Below, piece after piece: positions 2,981 through 10,573 of a stretch of DNA of 24,000 nucleotides. The translations under genes and the position numbers were made by a program. The notes under the pieces are model-generated. The model saw only the letters and a list, made by a program, of their open reading frames with translations, searched no databases and was not told where the DNA came from. Location of the stretch: assembly GCA_947085495.1 (NCBI GenBank), contig CAMTWJ010000002.1, positions 170,969 through 194,968 on the forward strand, read 5' to 3'. Source of the stretch: an uncultured Candidatus Saccharibacteria bacterium. GTDB lineage: Bacteria > Patescibacteriota > Saccharimonadia > Saccharimonadales > 2-12-FULL-41-12. The stretch's first letter is position 1. Each line of letters opens with the position of its first letter.

Positions 2981-3220
2981 CTATTCGAGGCCTTCTTCTT
3001 CGTGAAGGGCTTCTTCGACTCTTTTAGCTTCGGCAGGAGTTAGTGTTTTGTCTCTTAGCAGTGCTGCTACGACAAGAGCCAAGATAAAGGAAACGAGTAT
3101 TCCTAGCAATAAGAATAGTGCAAAGCTGTATCCTTTACGCTGTGCGATAAAAGCTGGCCACAATGCAAAGGATACCCATGCAATGACTCCCAAGATTATA
3201 AAAAACATAAGCACTCCCAT
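2981..3220 (-). CDS. Small two-TM membrane protein (hypothetical)
   Basis: 79-aa ORF with two clear hydrophobic helices and an acidic C-terminal tail. It is convergent with the SDR gene. No recognisable family. Confidence 0.5.
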   Translation of the reverse strand: MGVLMFFIILGVIAWVSFALWPAFIAQRKGYSFALFLLLGILVSFILALVVAALLRDKTLTPAEAKRVEEALHEEEGLE

Positions 3221-3879: not shown

Positions 3880-4344
3880 ATGAAGACAACAAAGGAACGG
3901 TTTAAGCTAATCCCGGCGGTATACCTGGTGTTGCGGCAAGATAATAAGGTGCTGCTACTCCGACGAGCGAATACCGGCTATCAAGATGGTAAGTATGGAC
4001 TAGTTGCTGGGCACCTTGATGGGGATGAGCTTGGTACTGTAGCTATGGTTCGTGAGGCAAAAGAGGAAGCTGGCATAGATGTTGACCCAACCAAGTTGAA
4101 ATTTGTTCATGTTGCTCACCGATTAAGTCGTGATCAGATTGGCCAGGAGAGGATTGACCTATTTTATGAATTAAGGGAGTGGCAGGGCCAAATACAAAAT
4201 GCTGAACCTGAAAAATGTGATGACCTAACCTGGTTTGACATTAACGATCTTCCAAGCAATACATTGCCTTTTGTGAGACACGTGTTGGAAGATATAGCCA
4301 ACAACATAAGTTACTCTGAGTATCTAATCGAACCTAAGCTCTAA
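3880..4344 (+). CDS. NUDIX hydrolase
   Basis: 154-aa ORF with a complete Nudix box, GHLDGDELGTVAMVREAKEEAGI (Gx5Ex7REUxEExGU). TGGTATAAT (3861-3869) lies 10 nt upstream of the ATG. Confidence 0.85.
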   Translation: MKTTKERFKLIPAVYLVLRQDNKVLLLRRANTGYQDGKYGLVAGHLDGDELGTVAMVREAKEEAGIDVDPTKLKFVHVAHRLSRDQIGQERIDLFYELREWQGQIQNAEPEKCDDLTWFDINDLPSNTLPFVRHVLEDIANNISYSEYLIEPKL

Positions 4345-5616: not shown

Positions 5617-6744
5617 TTATTGAGAATGTGAACTCTTTGCAACTTCTTCTCTGGCTACGTTCCAGAGGCTTGGGTCGTTGGCTTTGACTTTACGCCAATA
5701 CCACCACTCGACACCCCAGGTGTCCATGGTGCGAAGGCCAGTCTCTCGTCCGTATTCAAAGCGTTCTTTTAGGCGTTCGGCATTCATAGATTTATTTTGC
5801 TCAGGAATGTCAGAAATTTTATTAATCTCATATCCTTCTGGCATCCAAGGCTCCATCTGAAGCTCGTGAATGATCAGCGGCTTGCCCTGTGCCAACTCAC
5901 CTGCTCCGGCCAATGTGGAGTAGAACCAAGGCGGATACGGGTATTCAAAATAGCGATGCGTTACCGAATAGTCGTAGACTCTTTTGTACACAGCAACGCC
6001 ATACACATCGGGGGTTGGTTTGCCGACTGGCCACCCGCCCCAGTTATTGCTACGAGTAACAACGATTGGTTTACTTGGGTCGAGTTTGCGCACTAGCTCA
6101 GTTTCCTCAACCAAACGTTCTCGGTCAAAGTCTGTGCACTTGCCAAACACTTTCATAAAGAATTCGTTTTCTACCTGATAGCTCACAAGAGCTGGGCTGT
6201 CTTTGTACCGCTCAACCACAGCAGTCATGAACTTCTTAAGCTGAGGGTACCACACATCTTTAGGCTCTTTTTGAGCCCAAGCTGGTTCGTGGCACTCTGG
6301 CCAGCGAGGTTGGCGAAGACCTACGGCCAAGTTCACTGTTGCTCCCGCTTCCTCGGCCATCTTAAATTGCCAGTCTAGGTCGCTAAAATCATACGTGCCT
6401 GGCGTTGCTTCTATTTCTTTCCAGTAGCTCACTAGGCGCAAACGCTTAATCTGTAAGTCGTACAAGGTAGCGTGCAGCGTGTCTTTGGGATCTAGGCCAA
6501 AGTAGCGAGCATACCTAGGAATAAAAGTGGTGCCAACCTGATGAGGTTCGCTGGCGTGTTTTTGCTGATACCAATAGGCAAGGCCGTAGCTGCCACTAAA
6601 GACACAAGTAACTAACAAAATAACGAAGATCACTATTCGTTCGTACCAGTCTCGCTTTTTCCAAAGCACGCCGGTTATCTTGGATATTGGGCCAGATTTT
6701 GCCTTTGGCCGCTTTCTTAGAGCTGTTTTTTTCTTCTTTGGCAT
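5617..6744 (-). CDS. Membrane-anchored glycoside hydrolase, clan GH-A (GH35/GH42 beta-galactosidase-like)
   Basis: I prefer the start at MPKKKK (ATG, rc of 6742-6744), giving 375 aa. The track's longer ORF would overlap the divergent GT2 gene. Features are a basic N-terminus plus one TM helix, then PGTYDFSDLDWQFKMAEEAGATVNLAVGLRQPRWPECHEPAWA and the catalytic-acid motif YQVENEFF (compare QVENEYG in GH35). Confidence 0.6.
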   Translation of the reverse strand: MPKKKKTALRKRPKAKSGPISKITGVLWKKRDWYERIVIFVILLVTCVFSGSYGLAYWYQQKHASEPHQVGTTFIPRYARYFGLDPKDTLHATLYDLQIKRLRLVSYWKEIEATPGTYDFSDLDWQFKMAEEAGATVNLAVGLRQPRWPECHEPAWAQKEPKDVWYPQLKKFMTAVVERYKDSPALVSYQVENEFFMKVFGKCTDFDRERLVEETELVRKLDPSKPIVVTRSNNWGGWPVGKPTPDVYGVAVYKRVYDYSVTHRYFEYPYPPWFYSTLAGAGELAQGKPLIIHELQMEPWMPEGYEINKISDIPEQNKSMNAERLKERFEYGRETGLRTMDTWGVEWWYWRKVKANDPSLWNVAREEVAKSSHSQ

Positions 6745-7619: not shown

Positions 7620-8213
7620 CTACTGAGCATCGTTGCTGGTGTAGCCACCAAATTCATTTTCTGCAGGGGTGCAGCTGTTCCACAGTCCCCTATTTTGCTC
7701 ACGAGCTTCGACTTGAAGTGCCCGAAATTCATCGAGCTTTTGGAATGGAAAGCTGACATAGGCAAAGCCATAGCCATTTTTGATAATCTCGGCATTCACC
7801 AGTCTGCCATCTGGCAGATATACATAGCGCAGCAAGCGGTTGTATCTGTCTCGGTTTTGGTTGGTTGGGTCAGCATCTAGGCGGAGCTCTTGGTTGCCTA
7901 TCAAGTCTTTTGTGTACTGTGCCGCTGCTTGGCCAAAACACTGGATGGCTTTACGAGGATCATGTGTTTCGGGTGTATCAACACCGATAAACCGTACTTT
8001 TTCAGTGGTACCGTTCATGTTTACGGACACGGTATCGCCATCGCTAAACTCAACCACTCGATATAGACCCGGGTTTTGAGTCTGTGCCAGCTTTGGAGGC
8101 TCTTCTTGTTTTACAACCGCAAAGCTAATCGCTGTTAGTAGCAGCGCAAATATAAGTCCAGATAATGTCTTCGGTCGTCGTTTTAGATAGCGGAAGCTAC
8201 TTTTGGTACCCAT
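7620..8213 (-). CDS. Thermonuclease (staphylococcal nuclease/SNase family) with N-terminal membrane anchor or signal
   Basis: 197-aa ORF with the N-terminal TM LSGLIFALLLTAISFAVV. The SNase core reads GDTVSV...EKVRFIGVDTPETHDP...RDRYNRLLRYVYLPDGRLVNAEIIKNGYGFAY. TATAAT (rc of 8222-8227) lies 8 nt upstream of the ATG, inside the upstream gene. Confidence 0.85.
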   Translation of the reverse strand: MGTKSSFRYLKRRPKTLSGLIFALLLTAISFAVVKQEEPPKLAQTQNPGLYRVVEFSDGDTVSVNMNGTTEKVRFIGVDTPETHDPRKAIQCFGQAAAQYTKDLIGNQELRLDADPTNQNRDRYNRLLRYVYLPDGRLVNAEIIKNGYGFAYVSFPFQKLDEFRALQVEAREQNRGLWNSCTPAENEFGGYTSNDAQ

Positions 8214-9049
8214 ACCGAAGTATTATACTCGGCTGGTTTTGGCAGTTCGGCCACAAGCTCGGTAAGCTCTTCCTGCGAAGGCAGGTTTTTCTTGAGTTCT
8301 TCAAGGGGCTCTGTAGGGCTAACATGCTGTTCGGTATACTCTGTCCCGGCACTGTTGTACAAGTCAGTGTGCGTAGCAGCCGGTAGTTGTTCTGCTGCTG
8401 GGAGTGCGTACAGCGCCGAGCGAATTGGAGCTATAGAAGTAACATCTTCTAGCGAGTGGATGAATGTCTTGGGAGCTATCTTTTTCCCATAGCCGTATGG
8501 AGTTTTGTCGATGTTAAACAATGTCCCTGCTGGGTATGAAATGCCATTTAGAGACAAAGGCGCAAATGATAAAGCAGTGGGTTCACGGTAGCCCTTCTTA
8601 AAAAATACAAGCTGGCCTTCGTCGTCTACAAACATGCGGTTTTTATTGCTACCGTATTCGTCGTCTGACAGATCACTGCGCTCAATCGCTGCCTTAAAGT
8701 AATATTCAGCCGAAAGACAATTATCTGCTCCCTCTTTTGCCTCGTTATGGTGAAGCTCTATCTTCTCTTCGGCATCTCGAAAAGACGAATCATTAACAAT
8801 GTTTAGCAGATAGCCGCCCATAGTACTTAGTCCATCCATTTGAGGAATGTATTCGTTGGATAGCTCTCGGTCCGGCTTTTCTCGCAGAACAGTACACGCC
8901 CGAGTGTAGGCATTAAAGGTATTAGAGCCGGTCAAGGTTGTGATTGACGGGTGTTTGGAATTGCCTTTGAGCGCATCAAGAATAAAGGGTTCTACAACCC
9001 CCTCCATAGCCTCAACAAGCTGTTCGTGATCTTGAATAAATTCTGACAT
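8183..9049 (-). CDS. Hypothetical protein, paralog 2 of a tandem pair (288 aa)
   Basis: Shares blocks with the 281-aa neighbour: GSNTFNAYTRAC vs GSNAFNAYAQAC, and FVDDEGQLVFFKKGYREPTALSFAPLSLNGISYPAGTLFNI vs YVDDEGETVLFQKSFGEESAMSFKPISVAGIDYAPGTIFSV. No signal peptide and no family recognised. Its 3' end overlaps the nuclease start by 31 nt. Confidence 0.6.
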   Translation of the reverse strand: MSEFIQDHEQLVEAMEGVVEPFILDALKGNSKHPSITTLTGSNTFNAYTRACTVLREKPDRELSNEYIPQMDGLSTMGGYLLNIVNDSSFRDAEEKIELHHNEAKEGADNCLSAEYYFKAAIERSDLSDDEYGSNKNRMFVDDEGQLVFFKKGYREPTALSFAPLSLNGISYPAGTLFNIDKTPYGYGKKIAPKTFIHSLEDVTSIAPIRSALYALPAAEQLPAATHTDLYNSAGTEYTEQHVSPTEPLEELKKNLPSQEELTELVAELPKPAEYNTSVWVPKVASAI

Positions 9050-9055
9050 AAAGTA

Positions 9056-9088
9056 TATATTATACTAAAAAACACTAAAAAAGTCAAT
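9056..9088 (-). promoter_or_regulatory. Consensus sigma70 promoter cassette, copy 1 (TTGACT-17-TATAAT)
   Basis: The reverse strand reads ATTGACTTTTTTAGTGTTTTTTAGTATAATATA, with -35 at rc 9082-9087 and -10 at rc 9059-9064. The ATG at 9049 lies 9 nt after the -10. The cassette is 32/33 identical to 10541-10573. It is preceded on the reverse strand by hairpin AGCGT-AACC-ACGCT (9090-9103) spanning the upstream stop codon. Confidence 0.65.
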
Positions 9089-9096
9089 GAGCGTGG

Positions 9097-9942
9097 TTAC
9101 GCTGCTTTGGTTTGGGCTTCTGCCTCACGTTGCCAGGCTCTGCCCATAACACCAGCCAACCTTGGGCGCTCTTGAAGCACTTGTTTTAGCACACCAGCAG
9201 AAGGCATAAATGCAGATACGTCACGTACATCTAGATGTCTGAGGGCAGAATCAACATGGTAGTAGTCGAAGCCTTTTATAGTTTGCCTTCTGTCTTTATC
9301 TCTCTCACTCAAAGCAAGATAGCTCAGCCTCATCGGGCGAAGTGCAGCAATATGGCCCAGTGGATATACTTCGCTTTCGAAGAATTGGCCACTGACTGGT
9401 TCTCCAAAAGCGTCCTCGGTTTGCCATACGCTAAAAATAGTCCCTGGTGCATAATCTATGCCAGCGACAGAGATTGGCTTAAAGGACATTGCGCTTTCTT
9501 CTCCAAATGATTTTTGAAACAGCACTGTTTCGCCCTCGTCATCAACGTATAGATTATTGATATAGTCATGGCCAGCATTTCGTATGGAGCGAATATAATT
9601 TACCTCTGCGGACTTACAGGTTCCTATTAGTTTGTCAGTCCAATGAAACGGATACTTAGTGTTTTTTGGCCCTTCCACAGAGCTGTTTATAAGATCGATA
9701 ACCATCTTGCCGGCTTGCCCTATTTTCTTTGGCTGTTCAATCTTTCTTTCGGTCAATGGCTCCGCTTCGGCAGTCTGCTTGCAAGCCTGAGCATAGGCGT
9801 TAAATGCATTACTTCCTTCGATGTAGATCATCCCAGAGCTAGGCACTCTATATCCTGCTAAGGCCTCGACAATTGGCGCAGCAACTCCAGCCTCGTCAAA
9901 GGCTTCCAGCAAATGCGCAGTATCTCGTTCAATTTTATTCAT
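9097..9942 (-). CDS. Hypothetical protein, paralog 1 of a tandem pair (281 aa)
   Basis: Intact ORF with conserved blocks shared with 8183-9049 (see that entry). No family recognised. It begins 15 nt downstream of the hammerhead motif. Confidence 0.6.
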   Translation of the reverse strand: MNKIERDTAHLLEAFDEAGVAAPIVEALAGYRVPSSGMIYIEGSNAFNAYAQACKQTAEAEPLTERKIEQPKKIGQAGKMVIDLINSSVEGPKNTKYPFHWTDKLIGTCKSAEVNYIRSIRNAGHDYINNLYVDDEGETVLFQKSFGEESAMSFKPISVAGIDYAPGTIFSVWQTEDAFGEPVSGQFFESEVYPLGHIAALRPMRLSYLALSERDKDRRQTIKGFDYYHVDSALRHLDVRDVSAFMPSAGVLKQVLQERPRLAGVMGRAWQREAEAQTKAA

Positions 9943-9957
9943 AAATTTTCTAAAACT

Positions 9958-10010
9958 CTTGCTTTCGTCCTTTTGGACTCATCAGTATGACCGCACAGTC
10001 ATAAAGCAAA
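9958..10010 (-). ncRNA. Hammerhead ribozyme, type III topology
   Basis: The reverse strand reads UUUGCU-U|UAUGAC-UGUGCG-GUCAUA-CUGAUGA-GUCC-AAAA-GGAC-GAAA-GCAAG.
- Core: both conserved core strands (CUGAUGA and GAAA) are present.
- Stem I: 6 bp with a 6-nt loop.
- Stem II: 4 bp with a G10.1-C11.1 closing pair and a 4-nt loop.
- Stem III: A15.1-U16.1 plus GCAAG/UUUGC, open-ended.
- Cleavage: site triplet CUU obeys the NUH rule. Predicted cleavage falls between 10004 and 10003. Confidence 0.8.
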
Positions 10011-10105
10011 TAACAAAGTGAAAACAGACCAAAAAGGATGGTGTGGGTAAAGGACGGATGTCCACCAATGCGTTTTCTTTGCATTGTCCCTCTTTTGCAT
10101 CTCCT

Positions 10106-10534
10106 TCAGAGACCTTTCTTTTCTCGGTACACAATCACAGGTATGACCAAGATTGTGAGAGTGAAGACGCTGGCCAGGAAAAGGCCCTCTATTTCGTCAC
10201 TCTTGATCATGATCAGCTTGTTCTCCAAGTCCTTCTTGTTGAAGAAGGAGTAGCTGATGACCAGGTCATGTAGCAGCACCAAAAGTGCTACCGCAAGCCA
10301 GGCTGCAGCGATGTACTCGAAAAAGCCGAGATCTTGGAACAGTCCATTGTTCCCGGTGAGCTGGCTGTATAGCCAAGAACTACCTACCAGCTGAGTTATA
10401 AAGCTCAGTCCGGCTGCGAGGAGTAGAACGATAGTACGTTCAGCTGTATCTTTATCAAAGAAGTTCACTGTTGTATCCTTCGGTCGAGGTTTCCACTTTG
10501 TTAAGGTGTTAAGGAGAAAATGTTTTCTCAACAA
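10106..10534 (-). CDS. Hypothetical multi-pass membrane protein (142 aa, TTG start)
   Basis: ORF with about three hydrophobic helices (IVLLLAAGLSFITQLV, YIAAAWLAVALLVLL, LFLASVFTLTILVIPVIV). The only in-frame start near the promoter is TTG at 10534, 9 nt after the -10. The start assignment is uncertain. Confidence 0.5.
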   Translation of the reverse strand: MLRKHFLLNTLTKWKPRPKDTTVNFFDKDTAERTIVLLLAAGLSFITQLVGSSWLYSQLTGNNGLFQDLGFFEYIAAAWLAVALLVLLHDLVISYSFFNKKDLENKLIMIKSDEIEGLFLASVFTLTILVIPVIVYREKKGL

Positions 10535-10540
10535 AACTAA

Positions 10541-10573
10541 TATATTATACTAAAAAACACCAAAAAAGTCAAT
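10541..10573 (-). promoter_or_regulatory. Consensus sigma70 promoter cassette, copy 2 (TTGACT-17-TATAAT)
   Basis: The reverse strand reads ATTGACTTTTTTGGTGTTTTTTAGTATAATATA, with a single mismatch to copy 1. It is preceded on the reverse strand by an interrupted hairpin (10578-10607). Confidence 0.65.

Follow-up and report, generated by a model that had tools for sequence, protein, structure and literature searches.

A hammerhead ribozyme, orphan paralogs and an anchored nuclease in a variable chromosomal slot of Candidatus Saccharibacteria

In this study, we examined a 24,000-nucleotide stretch of the genome of an uncultured Candidatus Saccharibacteria bacterium (contig CAMTWJ010000002.1, positions 170,969 to 194,968; hereafter the window) and, within it, a compact minus-strand region that holds the gene of a small membrane protein, a type III hammerhead ribozyme, two paralogous genes (A and B) of an orphan family and the gene of a membrane-anchored nuclease, SNase (table 1). 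The original prediction, made from the letters alone, had listed five minus-strand elements, all of which are present, and had considered an epibiotic or reduced-genome bacterium, in agreement with the Saccharibacteria lineage of the DNA; it had also joined the elements into a single, tightly coupled operon of a novel type. This last reading fails, because SNase, the orphan family and the hammerhead each occur without the others. Our findings support, with a probability of roughly 0.6, a model where the region is a hypervariable slot in a conserved Saccharibacteria backbone, filled with a lineage-specific mix of genes, and not a dedicated nuclease system.

The slot and its orphan protein family

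The translated ATP synthase beta gene of the window is 84% identical to loci of Candidatus Saccharibacteria metagenome-assembled genomes (MAGs), and three related contigs are syntenic with the window along the order ATP synthase-HAD-CobA-like / slot / SNase-GT2-GH-SmpB, in which GT2 lies on the opposite strand; the slot content differs in each. With P for promoter, TM for the membrane protein gene, HHR for the hammerhead and A, B and C for the paralog types, the slot reads P-TM-HHR-A-P-B-SNase in the window, P-TM-TM-HHR-B-P-C-SNase plus three further genes in L001/L002, an unrelated transmembrane protein followed by P-C-SNase in L003, and P-C, without SNase, in L090. The flanking genes have a synonymous divergence (dS) of 0.64-1.05 from those of L001. 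Paralogs and membrane protein show a ratio of non-synonymous to synonymous divergence (dN/dS) of 0.11-0.24, as against 0.02-0.14 for backbone genes; the paralog and membrane protein genes are thus real, under purifying selection and faster-evolving than their neighbours.

A wider survey of the backbone, anchored on the conserved CobA-like gene, covered 80 metagenomic loci, 54 of which carried a downstream marker. SNase precedes GT2 in 35 of these 54 and the slot runs straight to GT2 in 19. Within this survey, orphan-family genes in the slot are confined to the window clade, L090, L095, L151 and L173, and the commonest SNase-adjacent gene (28 loci) encodes a P-loop protein of ~170 amino acids (aa) with a GYPGAGKTT motif; a ~330-aa protein fills the slot in eight other loci. 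The P-loop protein, which matches AAA_33/KTI12/zeta-toxin-like annotation in L095, stands directly upstream of SNase or GT2 in most of L100-L177 (e.g. L165:3287-3829, L118:7571-8104) and has no counterpart anywhere in the 24-kb window (tblastn, best E = 0.67). That the slot open reading frames (ORFs) of other lineages are highly divergent members of the orphan family was considered and rejected, hmmsearch --max returning nothing below E = 0.4. The window itself carries, between the CobA-like gene and promoter P1, a 109-aa ORF on the plus strand that has no family match and no counterpart in L001, L003 or L090, and that we regard as a further lineage-private occupant of the slot. No public names are on record for the window proteins.

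The small membrane protein, first read as a multi-pass protein of 142 aa (ORF 10534-10106), does carry three hydrophobic segments of transmembrane type; its start is probably GTG 10468, giving 120 aa, the length found in the public NCBI-derived record (P0155) and in the L001 ortholog, and this codon is preceded, at 7 nt, by an AAGGA motif of Shine-Dalgarno type. Homologs were seen only in L001/L002 (dN/dS of 0.24 against the L001 ortholog), and Pfam, PHROGs, NCBIfam and PADLOC hold no match.

The proteins A (281 aa) and B (288 aa) are, as had been proposed, paralogous (27% identity, E = 7e-26) and devoid of signal peptides, neither having a hydrophobic segment. Paralog A matches the hidden Markov model (HMM) of the family at E = 4.5e-51, and no relative above 32% identity was found among 1.84 billion representatives. 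The B ortholog of L001, at the first array position, is 74% identical (dN/dS 0.18); C orthologs are 88% identical, and B and C share about 40% identity. Although a word-indexed search had given a tiny family of 5-6 proteins, the exhaustive HMM search exposed this as a sensitivity artefact, returning 387 cluster representatives at E <= 1e-3, a lower bound for the family, and 109 at E <= 1e-10, with members mostly of 250-300 aa. The impression that the paralogs match no known family also stands: A and B have no match in Pfam, PHROGs, NCBIfam or PADLOC, 137 homologs have none in NCBIfam or PADLOC and a single spurious one in Pfam (one member, E = 0.0036), and a PDB profile search with the family matched only designed helical repeats. 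The AlphaFold model of paralog B reached a predicted local distance difference test (pLDDT) score of 87.3 (with 5 sequences only, the score was 43 and the model not usable), and Foldseek gave a best E = 1 against PDB and 0.7 against BFVD. From sequence and model, the orphan family appears to consist of cytosolic proteins of ~270 aa with no detectable known fold, in which seven residues are near-invariant (N86, C111, E115, K152, P173, G175 and R210 of alignment A6). Distant members lie after CobA (L095, L096), before GT2 (L094), beside a TPR gene (L093) and, as three tandem copies, beside a malic enzyme gene (L091); in L090, L091 and L093-L096 there is no SNase nearby.

In this lineage, then, the slot would hold a lineage-private small membrane protein gene and a tandem array of a fast-evolving orphan family. 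Three repeats are available for unequal recombination, namely the promoter, the common N-terminus MSEFIQDHEQL and the common C-terminus VWVPK..SAI, and recombination between the repeated promoter/5' coding sequence and the 3' coding sequence is the probable cause of the changes in number and order of copies. The array resembles the tandem paralog arrays of strain-variable slots (contingency loci) in its repeated promoter, conserved gene ends, variation of copy number and order among close relatives, and genes that outpace their neighbours, yet it differs in that its protein family is without known match and that it comes with no recombinase or invertase. A second reading, which we consider unlikely, is that the paralogs are rapidly diversifying epibiont interaction proteins, for example effectors delivered to the host bacterium or the intracellular partners of such effectors, encoded in a contingency locus where SNase and ribozyme are bystanders. 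The variable arrays, the strong consensus promoter of each copy, the raised dN/dS, the private deep branch formed by paralog A and the occurrence of the family only in Saccharibacteria-type contexts would all fit; the paralogs, however, lack any signal peptide or transmembrane segment, no secretion genes lie nearby, their dN/dS of 0.11-0.18 denotes purifying and not positive selection, and the near-invariant residues look more like those of an enzyme or a conserved binding site.

Table 1. Features of the slot region and its surroundings, in window coordinates
Feature	Position	Strand	Basis or remark
Promoter P1	10541..10572	-	TTGACT-N17-TATAAT; near-exact repeat of P2
Small membrane protein, three transmembrane segments	10106..10468 (GTG start); 142-aa reading from TTG 10534	-	ORF and hydrophobic segments
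Conserved non-coding spacer, membrane protein stop codon to hammerhead	10011..10105	-	Identity to L001
Type III hammerhead ribozyme	9958..10010	-	Rfam RF00008, fold, family covariation
Paralog A, 281 aa	9097..9942	-	ORF; orphan-family HMM
Small hairpin over paralog A stop codon	9090..9103	-	Terminator-like match
Promoter P2	9056..9087	-	Copy of P1
Paralog B, 288 aa	8183..9049	-	ORF; L001 ortholog
Membrane-anchored SNase, 197 aa	7620..8213	-	PF00565
tRNA gene, 67.7 bits	4884-4955	-	Downstream of SmpB; identical in L001 (11084-11155)
109-aa ORF, one transmembrane segment	10896-11225	+	Between CobA-like gene and P1

The anchored nuclease

The nuclease is what it had been taken for, an anchored protein whose gene overlaps that of a paralog by 31 nt (8183-8213). 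It matches PF00565 with 80.3 bits against a cut-off of 21, residues 72-179 covering profile positions 1-106 of 107, and carries a hydrophobic N-terminal anchor at residues 15-37; the orthologs of L001 and L003 are 83-92% identical. Its motifs SDGDTV, VRFIGVDTPET and RYNRLLRYVY may correspond to the Ca2+-binding and catalytic residues Asp21, Arg35, Asp40, Thr41, Glu43 and Arg87 of the S. aureus enzyme. With the thermonuclease family (PF00565; NCBIfam NucI, EcnA) it shares the GDTV, R-x4-DTPE and R..L.Y motifs and a full-length domain, and with secreted or anchored thermonucleases the N-terminal anchor, but it misses the equivalog cut-offs of NucI (90 vs 250) and EcnA (83 vs 180) and therefore belongs to the family without being an ortholog of either. 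It further differs from the family in being a conserved gene of the Saccharibacteria backbone, a resident by virtue of its same position in 35 of the 54 anchored loci. Around 30 of these 35 SNase-bearing loci have no orphan-family gene and most have the P-loop protein upstream instead; contact of SNase with a paralog is specific to the window clade. Exported or anchored outside the cell, SNase may degrade extracellular nucleic acid for uptake, a role for which SNase enzymology and the nucleotide auxotrophy of Patescibacteria are established background. Nucleic-acid scavenging, one of the roles first suggested, is plausible for the anchored nuclease.

A nuclease with its inhibitor or immunity set, the paralogs binding SNase before export, protecting the cell's own nucleic acids and diversifying together with the nuclease, was another of those roles and is in our view improbable. 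The overlap of the last paralog with the SNase start, kept in the window, L001 and L003, suggests translational coupling, and the faster evolution of the paralogs would suit such a pair; nonetheless, SNase stays well conserved at the amino acid level while the adjoining paralogs change between types A, B and C, it holds its place without the orphan family in ~30 loci, the family does without SNase in L090, L091 and L093-L096, and in L173 a P-loop gene stands between an orphan-family gene and SNase. Conserved co-occurrence of SNase and paralogs was accordingly not seen across loci. Nuclease inhibitors described to date are, moreover, small and specific, which counts against this role for the paralogs.

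A hammerhead family with a competing helix

The hammerhead of the window proved genuine, with the full CUGAUGA...GAAA core, three stems and U17. Stem III pairs 10010-10005 with 9963-9958, stem I 10003-9998 with 9991-9986 and stem II 9978-9975 with 9970-9967; the core elements CUGAUGA and GAA lie at 9985-9979 and 9966-9964, and U17 is at 10004, with the cut predicted between 10004 and 10003. When 59 nt are folded, stems I and II are closed by loops, stem III is open and the A15.1-U16.1 pair forms. All 53 of 53 nt are identical in L001 despite the flanking dS, at which, by our calculation, a neutral segment is expected to differ at ~35-45% of sites. The adjoining spacer forms two hairpins, and its region is ~91% identical to L001 over 175 nt, compared with ~78% in flanking coding sequence. 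This conserved block ends exactly at the 3' edge of the ribozyme, and the gene beyond it differs, being A (15 nt downstream) in the window and B in L001. No further hammerhead was found in the window with the family model described below, to which the window copy aligns at all 63 positions with 75.7 bits, having been in the training set.

Two small ORF observations attach to this segment. A 33-codon ORF (MQKRDNAKKTHWWTSVLYPHHPFWSVFTLLFAL, window 10099-9998, minus strand) crosses the spacer, stops at a UGA in ribozyme stem I and is also open in L001 (about 5785-5883); conservation at the RNA level seems likelier than coding here, because the few differences are mostly non-synonymous. The public call L001:5900-6805 (301 aa, first paralog) starts at an AUG within the ribozyme core CUGAUGA; translation probably begins 14 codons later, at MSEFIQDHEQL, which makes the call an annotation artefact caused by the ribozyme.

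A 25-nt pattern, CTGATGAGTCCNNNNGGACGAAAGC, searched on both strands of one-genome-per-species contigs (596 Gb), was found in 85 stretches, where we calculate ~0.3 by chance for its 21 fixed bases. This variant is nearly confined to MAGs of Saccharibacteria and other Patescibacteria, and the family model recognizes 102 copies in 86 loci; they lie between genes, in the same orientation as their diverse neighbours. In 70 distinct copies the type III structure has 95.4% of cells paired, against 30-46% in slid registers; compensatory changes occur in 6/6 stem I pairs and 3/6 stem III pairs, and none of 500 shuffles reaches the observed covariation score, stem II being fixed by the search pattern and hence outside this test. 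The core C3-U4-G5-A6-N7-G8-A9 and G12-A13-A14 is invariant in 70/70 copies at positions that belonged to the pattern, while position 17, which lay outside it, is C in 55, U in 12, A in 3 and G in none. Loop 1 is UGYGYR and loop 2 mostly AAAA. The core, three helices, open stem III, H17 and conserved loops are those of type III hammerheads (RF00008, clan CL00010), yet all nine tested copies, including those of the window, L009, L016, L025, L039, L050 and L077, fall below the RF00008 threshold (30.7-44.5 vs 48.5 bits), so standard annotation pipelines would not report these copies and appear to miss the family.

The genes around the ribozymes have little in common. A single family of flanking ORFs was sought and rejected, the largest BLAST cluster joining 5 of 88 upstream and 2 of 56 downstream ORFs, and no orphan-family protein is encoded in any of the 85 other hammerhead loci; beyond the three closest relatives, neither nuclease nor ribozyme is a conserved neighbour of the paralogs, which themselves, as originally expected, match no housekeeping family. 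Several loci carry 2-3 hammerheads on one strand, 0.3-3 kb apart, around single genes or short gene blocks: L025 (493, 2712, 5497, minus strand), L050 (1106, 1968, 2293, plus strand) and L077 (5696, 6501, 7183, minus strand), and further L004, L007, L042, L048 and L087. Like other bacterial and prophage hammerheads, these copies lie between genes whose orientation they share, and the prophage hammerheads described in 2011 bracket genes in a similar way; the present copies differ in being chromosomal and outside prophages, within Saccharibacteria and Patescibacteria; in the window, neither the membrane protein nor the paralogs have a PHROG match and the flanks are housekeeping genes (ATP synthase, SmpB, tRNA). 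The closest precedent remains that of hammerheads which flank genes and process polycistronic prophage transcripts (Perreault et al. 2011, PMC3088659); a further precedent for ribozyme processing of polycistronic RNAs is cited in PMC6765202, where the function of most genomic ribozymes is still called unknown, a long-standing question in bacteria. No open-access paper was found that links hammerheads to Saccharibacteria, the candidate phyla radiation (CPR) or Patescibacteria, and the family is apparently undescribed.

A few copies carry other labels. Typical copies occur on short contigs named Nanoarchaeia archaeon (L068, DATIHE010000050.1) and Spirochaetia (L074 and L083, JARKOY01), the latter two also with the upstream domain discussed below; these contigs are probably mis-binned. 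The only viral contig to match the pattern, L089 (IMG/VR), has hammerhead-like sites at 3049-3127 and 3952-4006, ~0.9 kb apart, which score 25 and 38 bits with the family model and are GC-rich, unlike the Saccharibacteria consensus.

Upstream of the ribozyme lies a second conserved element, for which no Rfam family matched. In 31 of 88 copies, an arm with the consensus GAGCGARUAUGRCAAGYRG pairs at 17/20 positions or more with the 20 nt up to and including the cleavage nucleotide, a level reached by only 0.5% of shuffled controls. The resulting competing helix has 20-28 bp, with G.U pairs and compensatory changes; RNAalifold, given 16 copies aligned by sequence, also predicts this helix (26 bp), and in two copies it dominates the minimum free energy (MFE) fold, the z-scores being -6.2 and -7.3 (example copies with the helix are L009:7412-7580 and L052:1057-1225, both on the minus strand). 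Because reading the duplex on the opposite strand reduces the signal to background, the helix is an RNA-level feature, and for the same reason the conserved arms were rejected as inverted repeats of miniature inverted-repeat transposable elements (MITEs). Just ahead of the arm, 30 of the 31 copies have the end of an ORF of 60 codons or more; the median gap is 6.5 nt, and most gaps measure 2-14 nt. In silico, none of nine consensus copies has stem III in its free MFE fold, forcing stem III costs 6-19 kcal/mol, and masking the first 4-6 nt of the arm restores 5-6 of its 6 pairs.

This arrangement suggests that self-cleavage may be triggered by the ribosome terminating on the upstream ORF, that is, gated by translation; as a rival, the competing helix may instead be an RNase III site or a 3'-end stabiliser. 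With the glmS ribozyme and attenuator-type switches it shares two mutually exclusive folds, one hiding the cleavage site, and a trigger region where a ribosome would act, although here no ligand pocket is implied and the proposed trigger is the terminating ribosome. No description of such a helix was found in the literature on bacterial hammerheads. In the window, the arm (10106-10087) begins at the last base of the membrane protein's TGA and pairs 16/20 with 10023-10004, a segment that contains the 5' strand of stem III and the cleavage nucleotide, with only 1.6 kcal/mol between the two folds; folding points to a copy that is probably constitutive or only weakly gated.

That the hammerhead is the remnant of a mobile or repetitive element, with no role in expression of the cluster, strikes us as very unlikely. 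Such an origin would account for multiple copies beside unrelated genes and for a conserved block that stops at the ribozyme's 3' edge, just where the downstream genes of the window and L001 differ, but not for complete identity at a dS of about 0.7, covariation of stems I and III, retention of H17 and the loops, or the orientation of all copies with their flanking genes at a consistent distance after an ORF; the strand-specific, G.U-containing helix likewise argues against terminal repeats at the DNA level. Least credible of all is an anti-phage or anti-plasmid defence island with SNase as effector and the paralogs as sensors or regulators, a role also raised at the outset: the slot does vary between strains as defence islands do, and the SNc portion of PADLOC candidate C3a212 (SNc+LTD) finds a match in SNase (E = 1.9e-42, profile positions 49-180 of 279), but the match is partial, the 197-aa protein having no LTD or other second domain, none of 137 orphan-family members matches any PADLOC model, neither paralogs nor membrane protein match a PHROG, and SNase, by its N-terminal membrane anchor, would act outside the cytoplasm and belongs to the conserved backbone, not to the variable part.

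Proposed transcripts and significance

Within the slot, the genes are probably read as follows. Both consensus promoters of the original prediction exist, though they are not identical as then stated, their 32-nt copies differing at one base, a repeat for which 0 matches are expected by chance. With 11/12 consensus positions each, they outrank every other promoter match in the region. P1 is conserved in L001, L003 and L090, and conservation in L001 also extends to a block at 9108-9000. In both promoters, 9 nt separate the end of the -10 box from the first in-frame start codon (ATG 9049 for P2), a distance similar to that of family genes in L090, L092 and L093. A small hairpin at the paralog A stop codon immediately precedes the -35 box of P2 and may be a weak terminator; between the membrane protein stop codon and paralog A no minus-strand terminator or promoter match was found. 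We infer that P1 drives a bicistronic RNA of the membrane protein and paralog A, by read-through across the hammerhead, and that the ribozyme most likely cuts this RNA, cleaving itself after U10004. The products would be a membrane protein mRNA with a structured tail ending in a 2',3'-cyclic phosphate and a paralog A mRNA beginning with a 5'-OH and then the ribozyme hairpins, so that cleavage would make the stability and translation of one mRNA independent of the other. P2, which repeats P1, would yield a near-leaderless paralog B mRNA, with a leader of few nucleotides given the position of its -10 box, and SNase may be coupled translationally to paralog B through the overlap.

Some points weigh against the model of a variable slot with an active ribozyme. 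The overlap of paralog and SNase is kept in three genomes, so a local functional link may exist in this clade. Paralog A has no obvious Shine-Dalgarno sequence at normal distance, and the neighbourhoods of distant orphan-family members form a small sample of 8 loci, several on short contigs. The hammerheads of the window and L001 score 30.7 bits against the RF00008 gathering score of 48.5 (E = 8e-4 locally), a shortfall that stems from how the curated model is composed, no defining feature being absent. Finally, the window copy has a CUU cleavage triplet where most family members have CUC, and CUU may cleave slower than CUC.

The supposed nuclease operon does not amount to a new type of system, and recognizing this spares follow-up on a false lead. 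The lasting value of the locus is a ribozyme family with a competing helix next to the stop codon, and an orphan protein family. A more ambitious proposal, for now tentative, is that this is an undescribed family of intercistronic hammerheads whose cleavage is often gated by a helix that the ribosome opens, and that the paralogs represent a new, epibiont-specific fold family; if true, processing of mRNA between genes would be coupled to translation of the upstream gene. The strand-specific helix near the stop codon offers a concrete, falsifiable mechanism for the control of self-cleavage. The hammerheads are abundant in Saccharibacteria, including human oral lineages, and their place on the chromosome, between ordinary genes and with naturally varying flanks, may make the function of genomic hammerheads testable if cultivable strains carry copies. 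The orphan family, with at least 387 representatives and a confident model, is a defined target for Saccharibacteria-specific biology, and the CobA-SNase slot a handy marker for strain-level variation.

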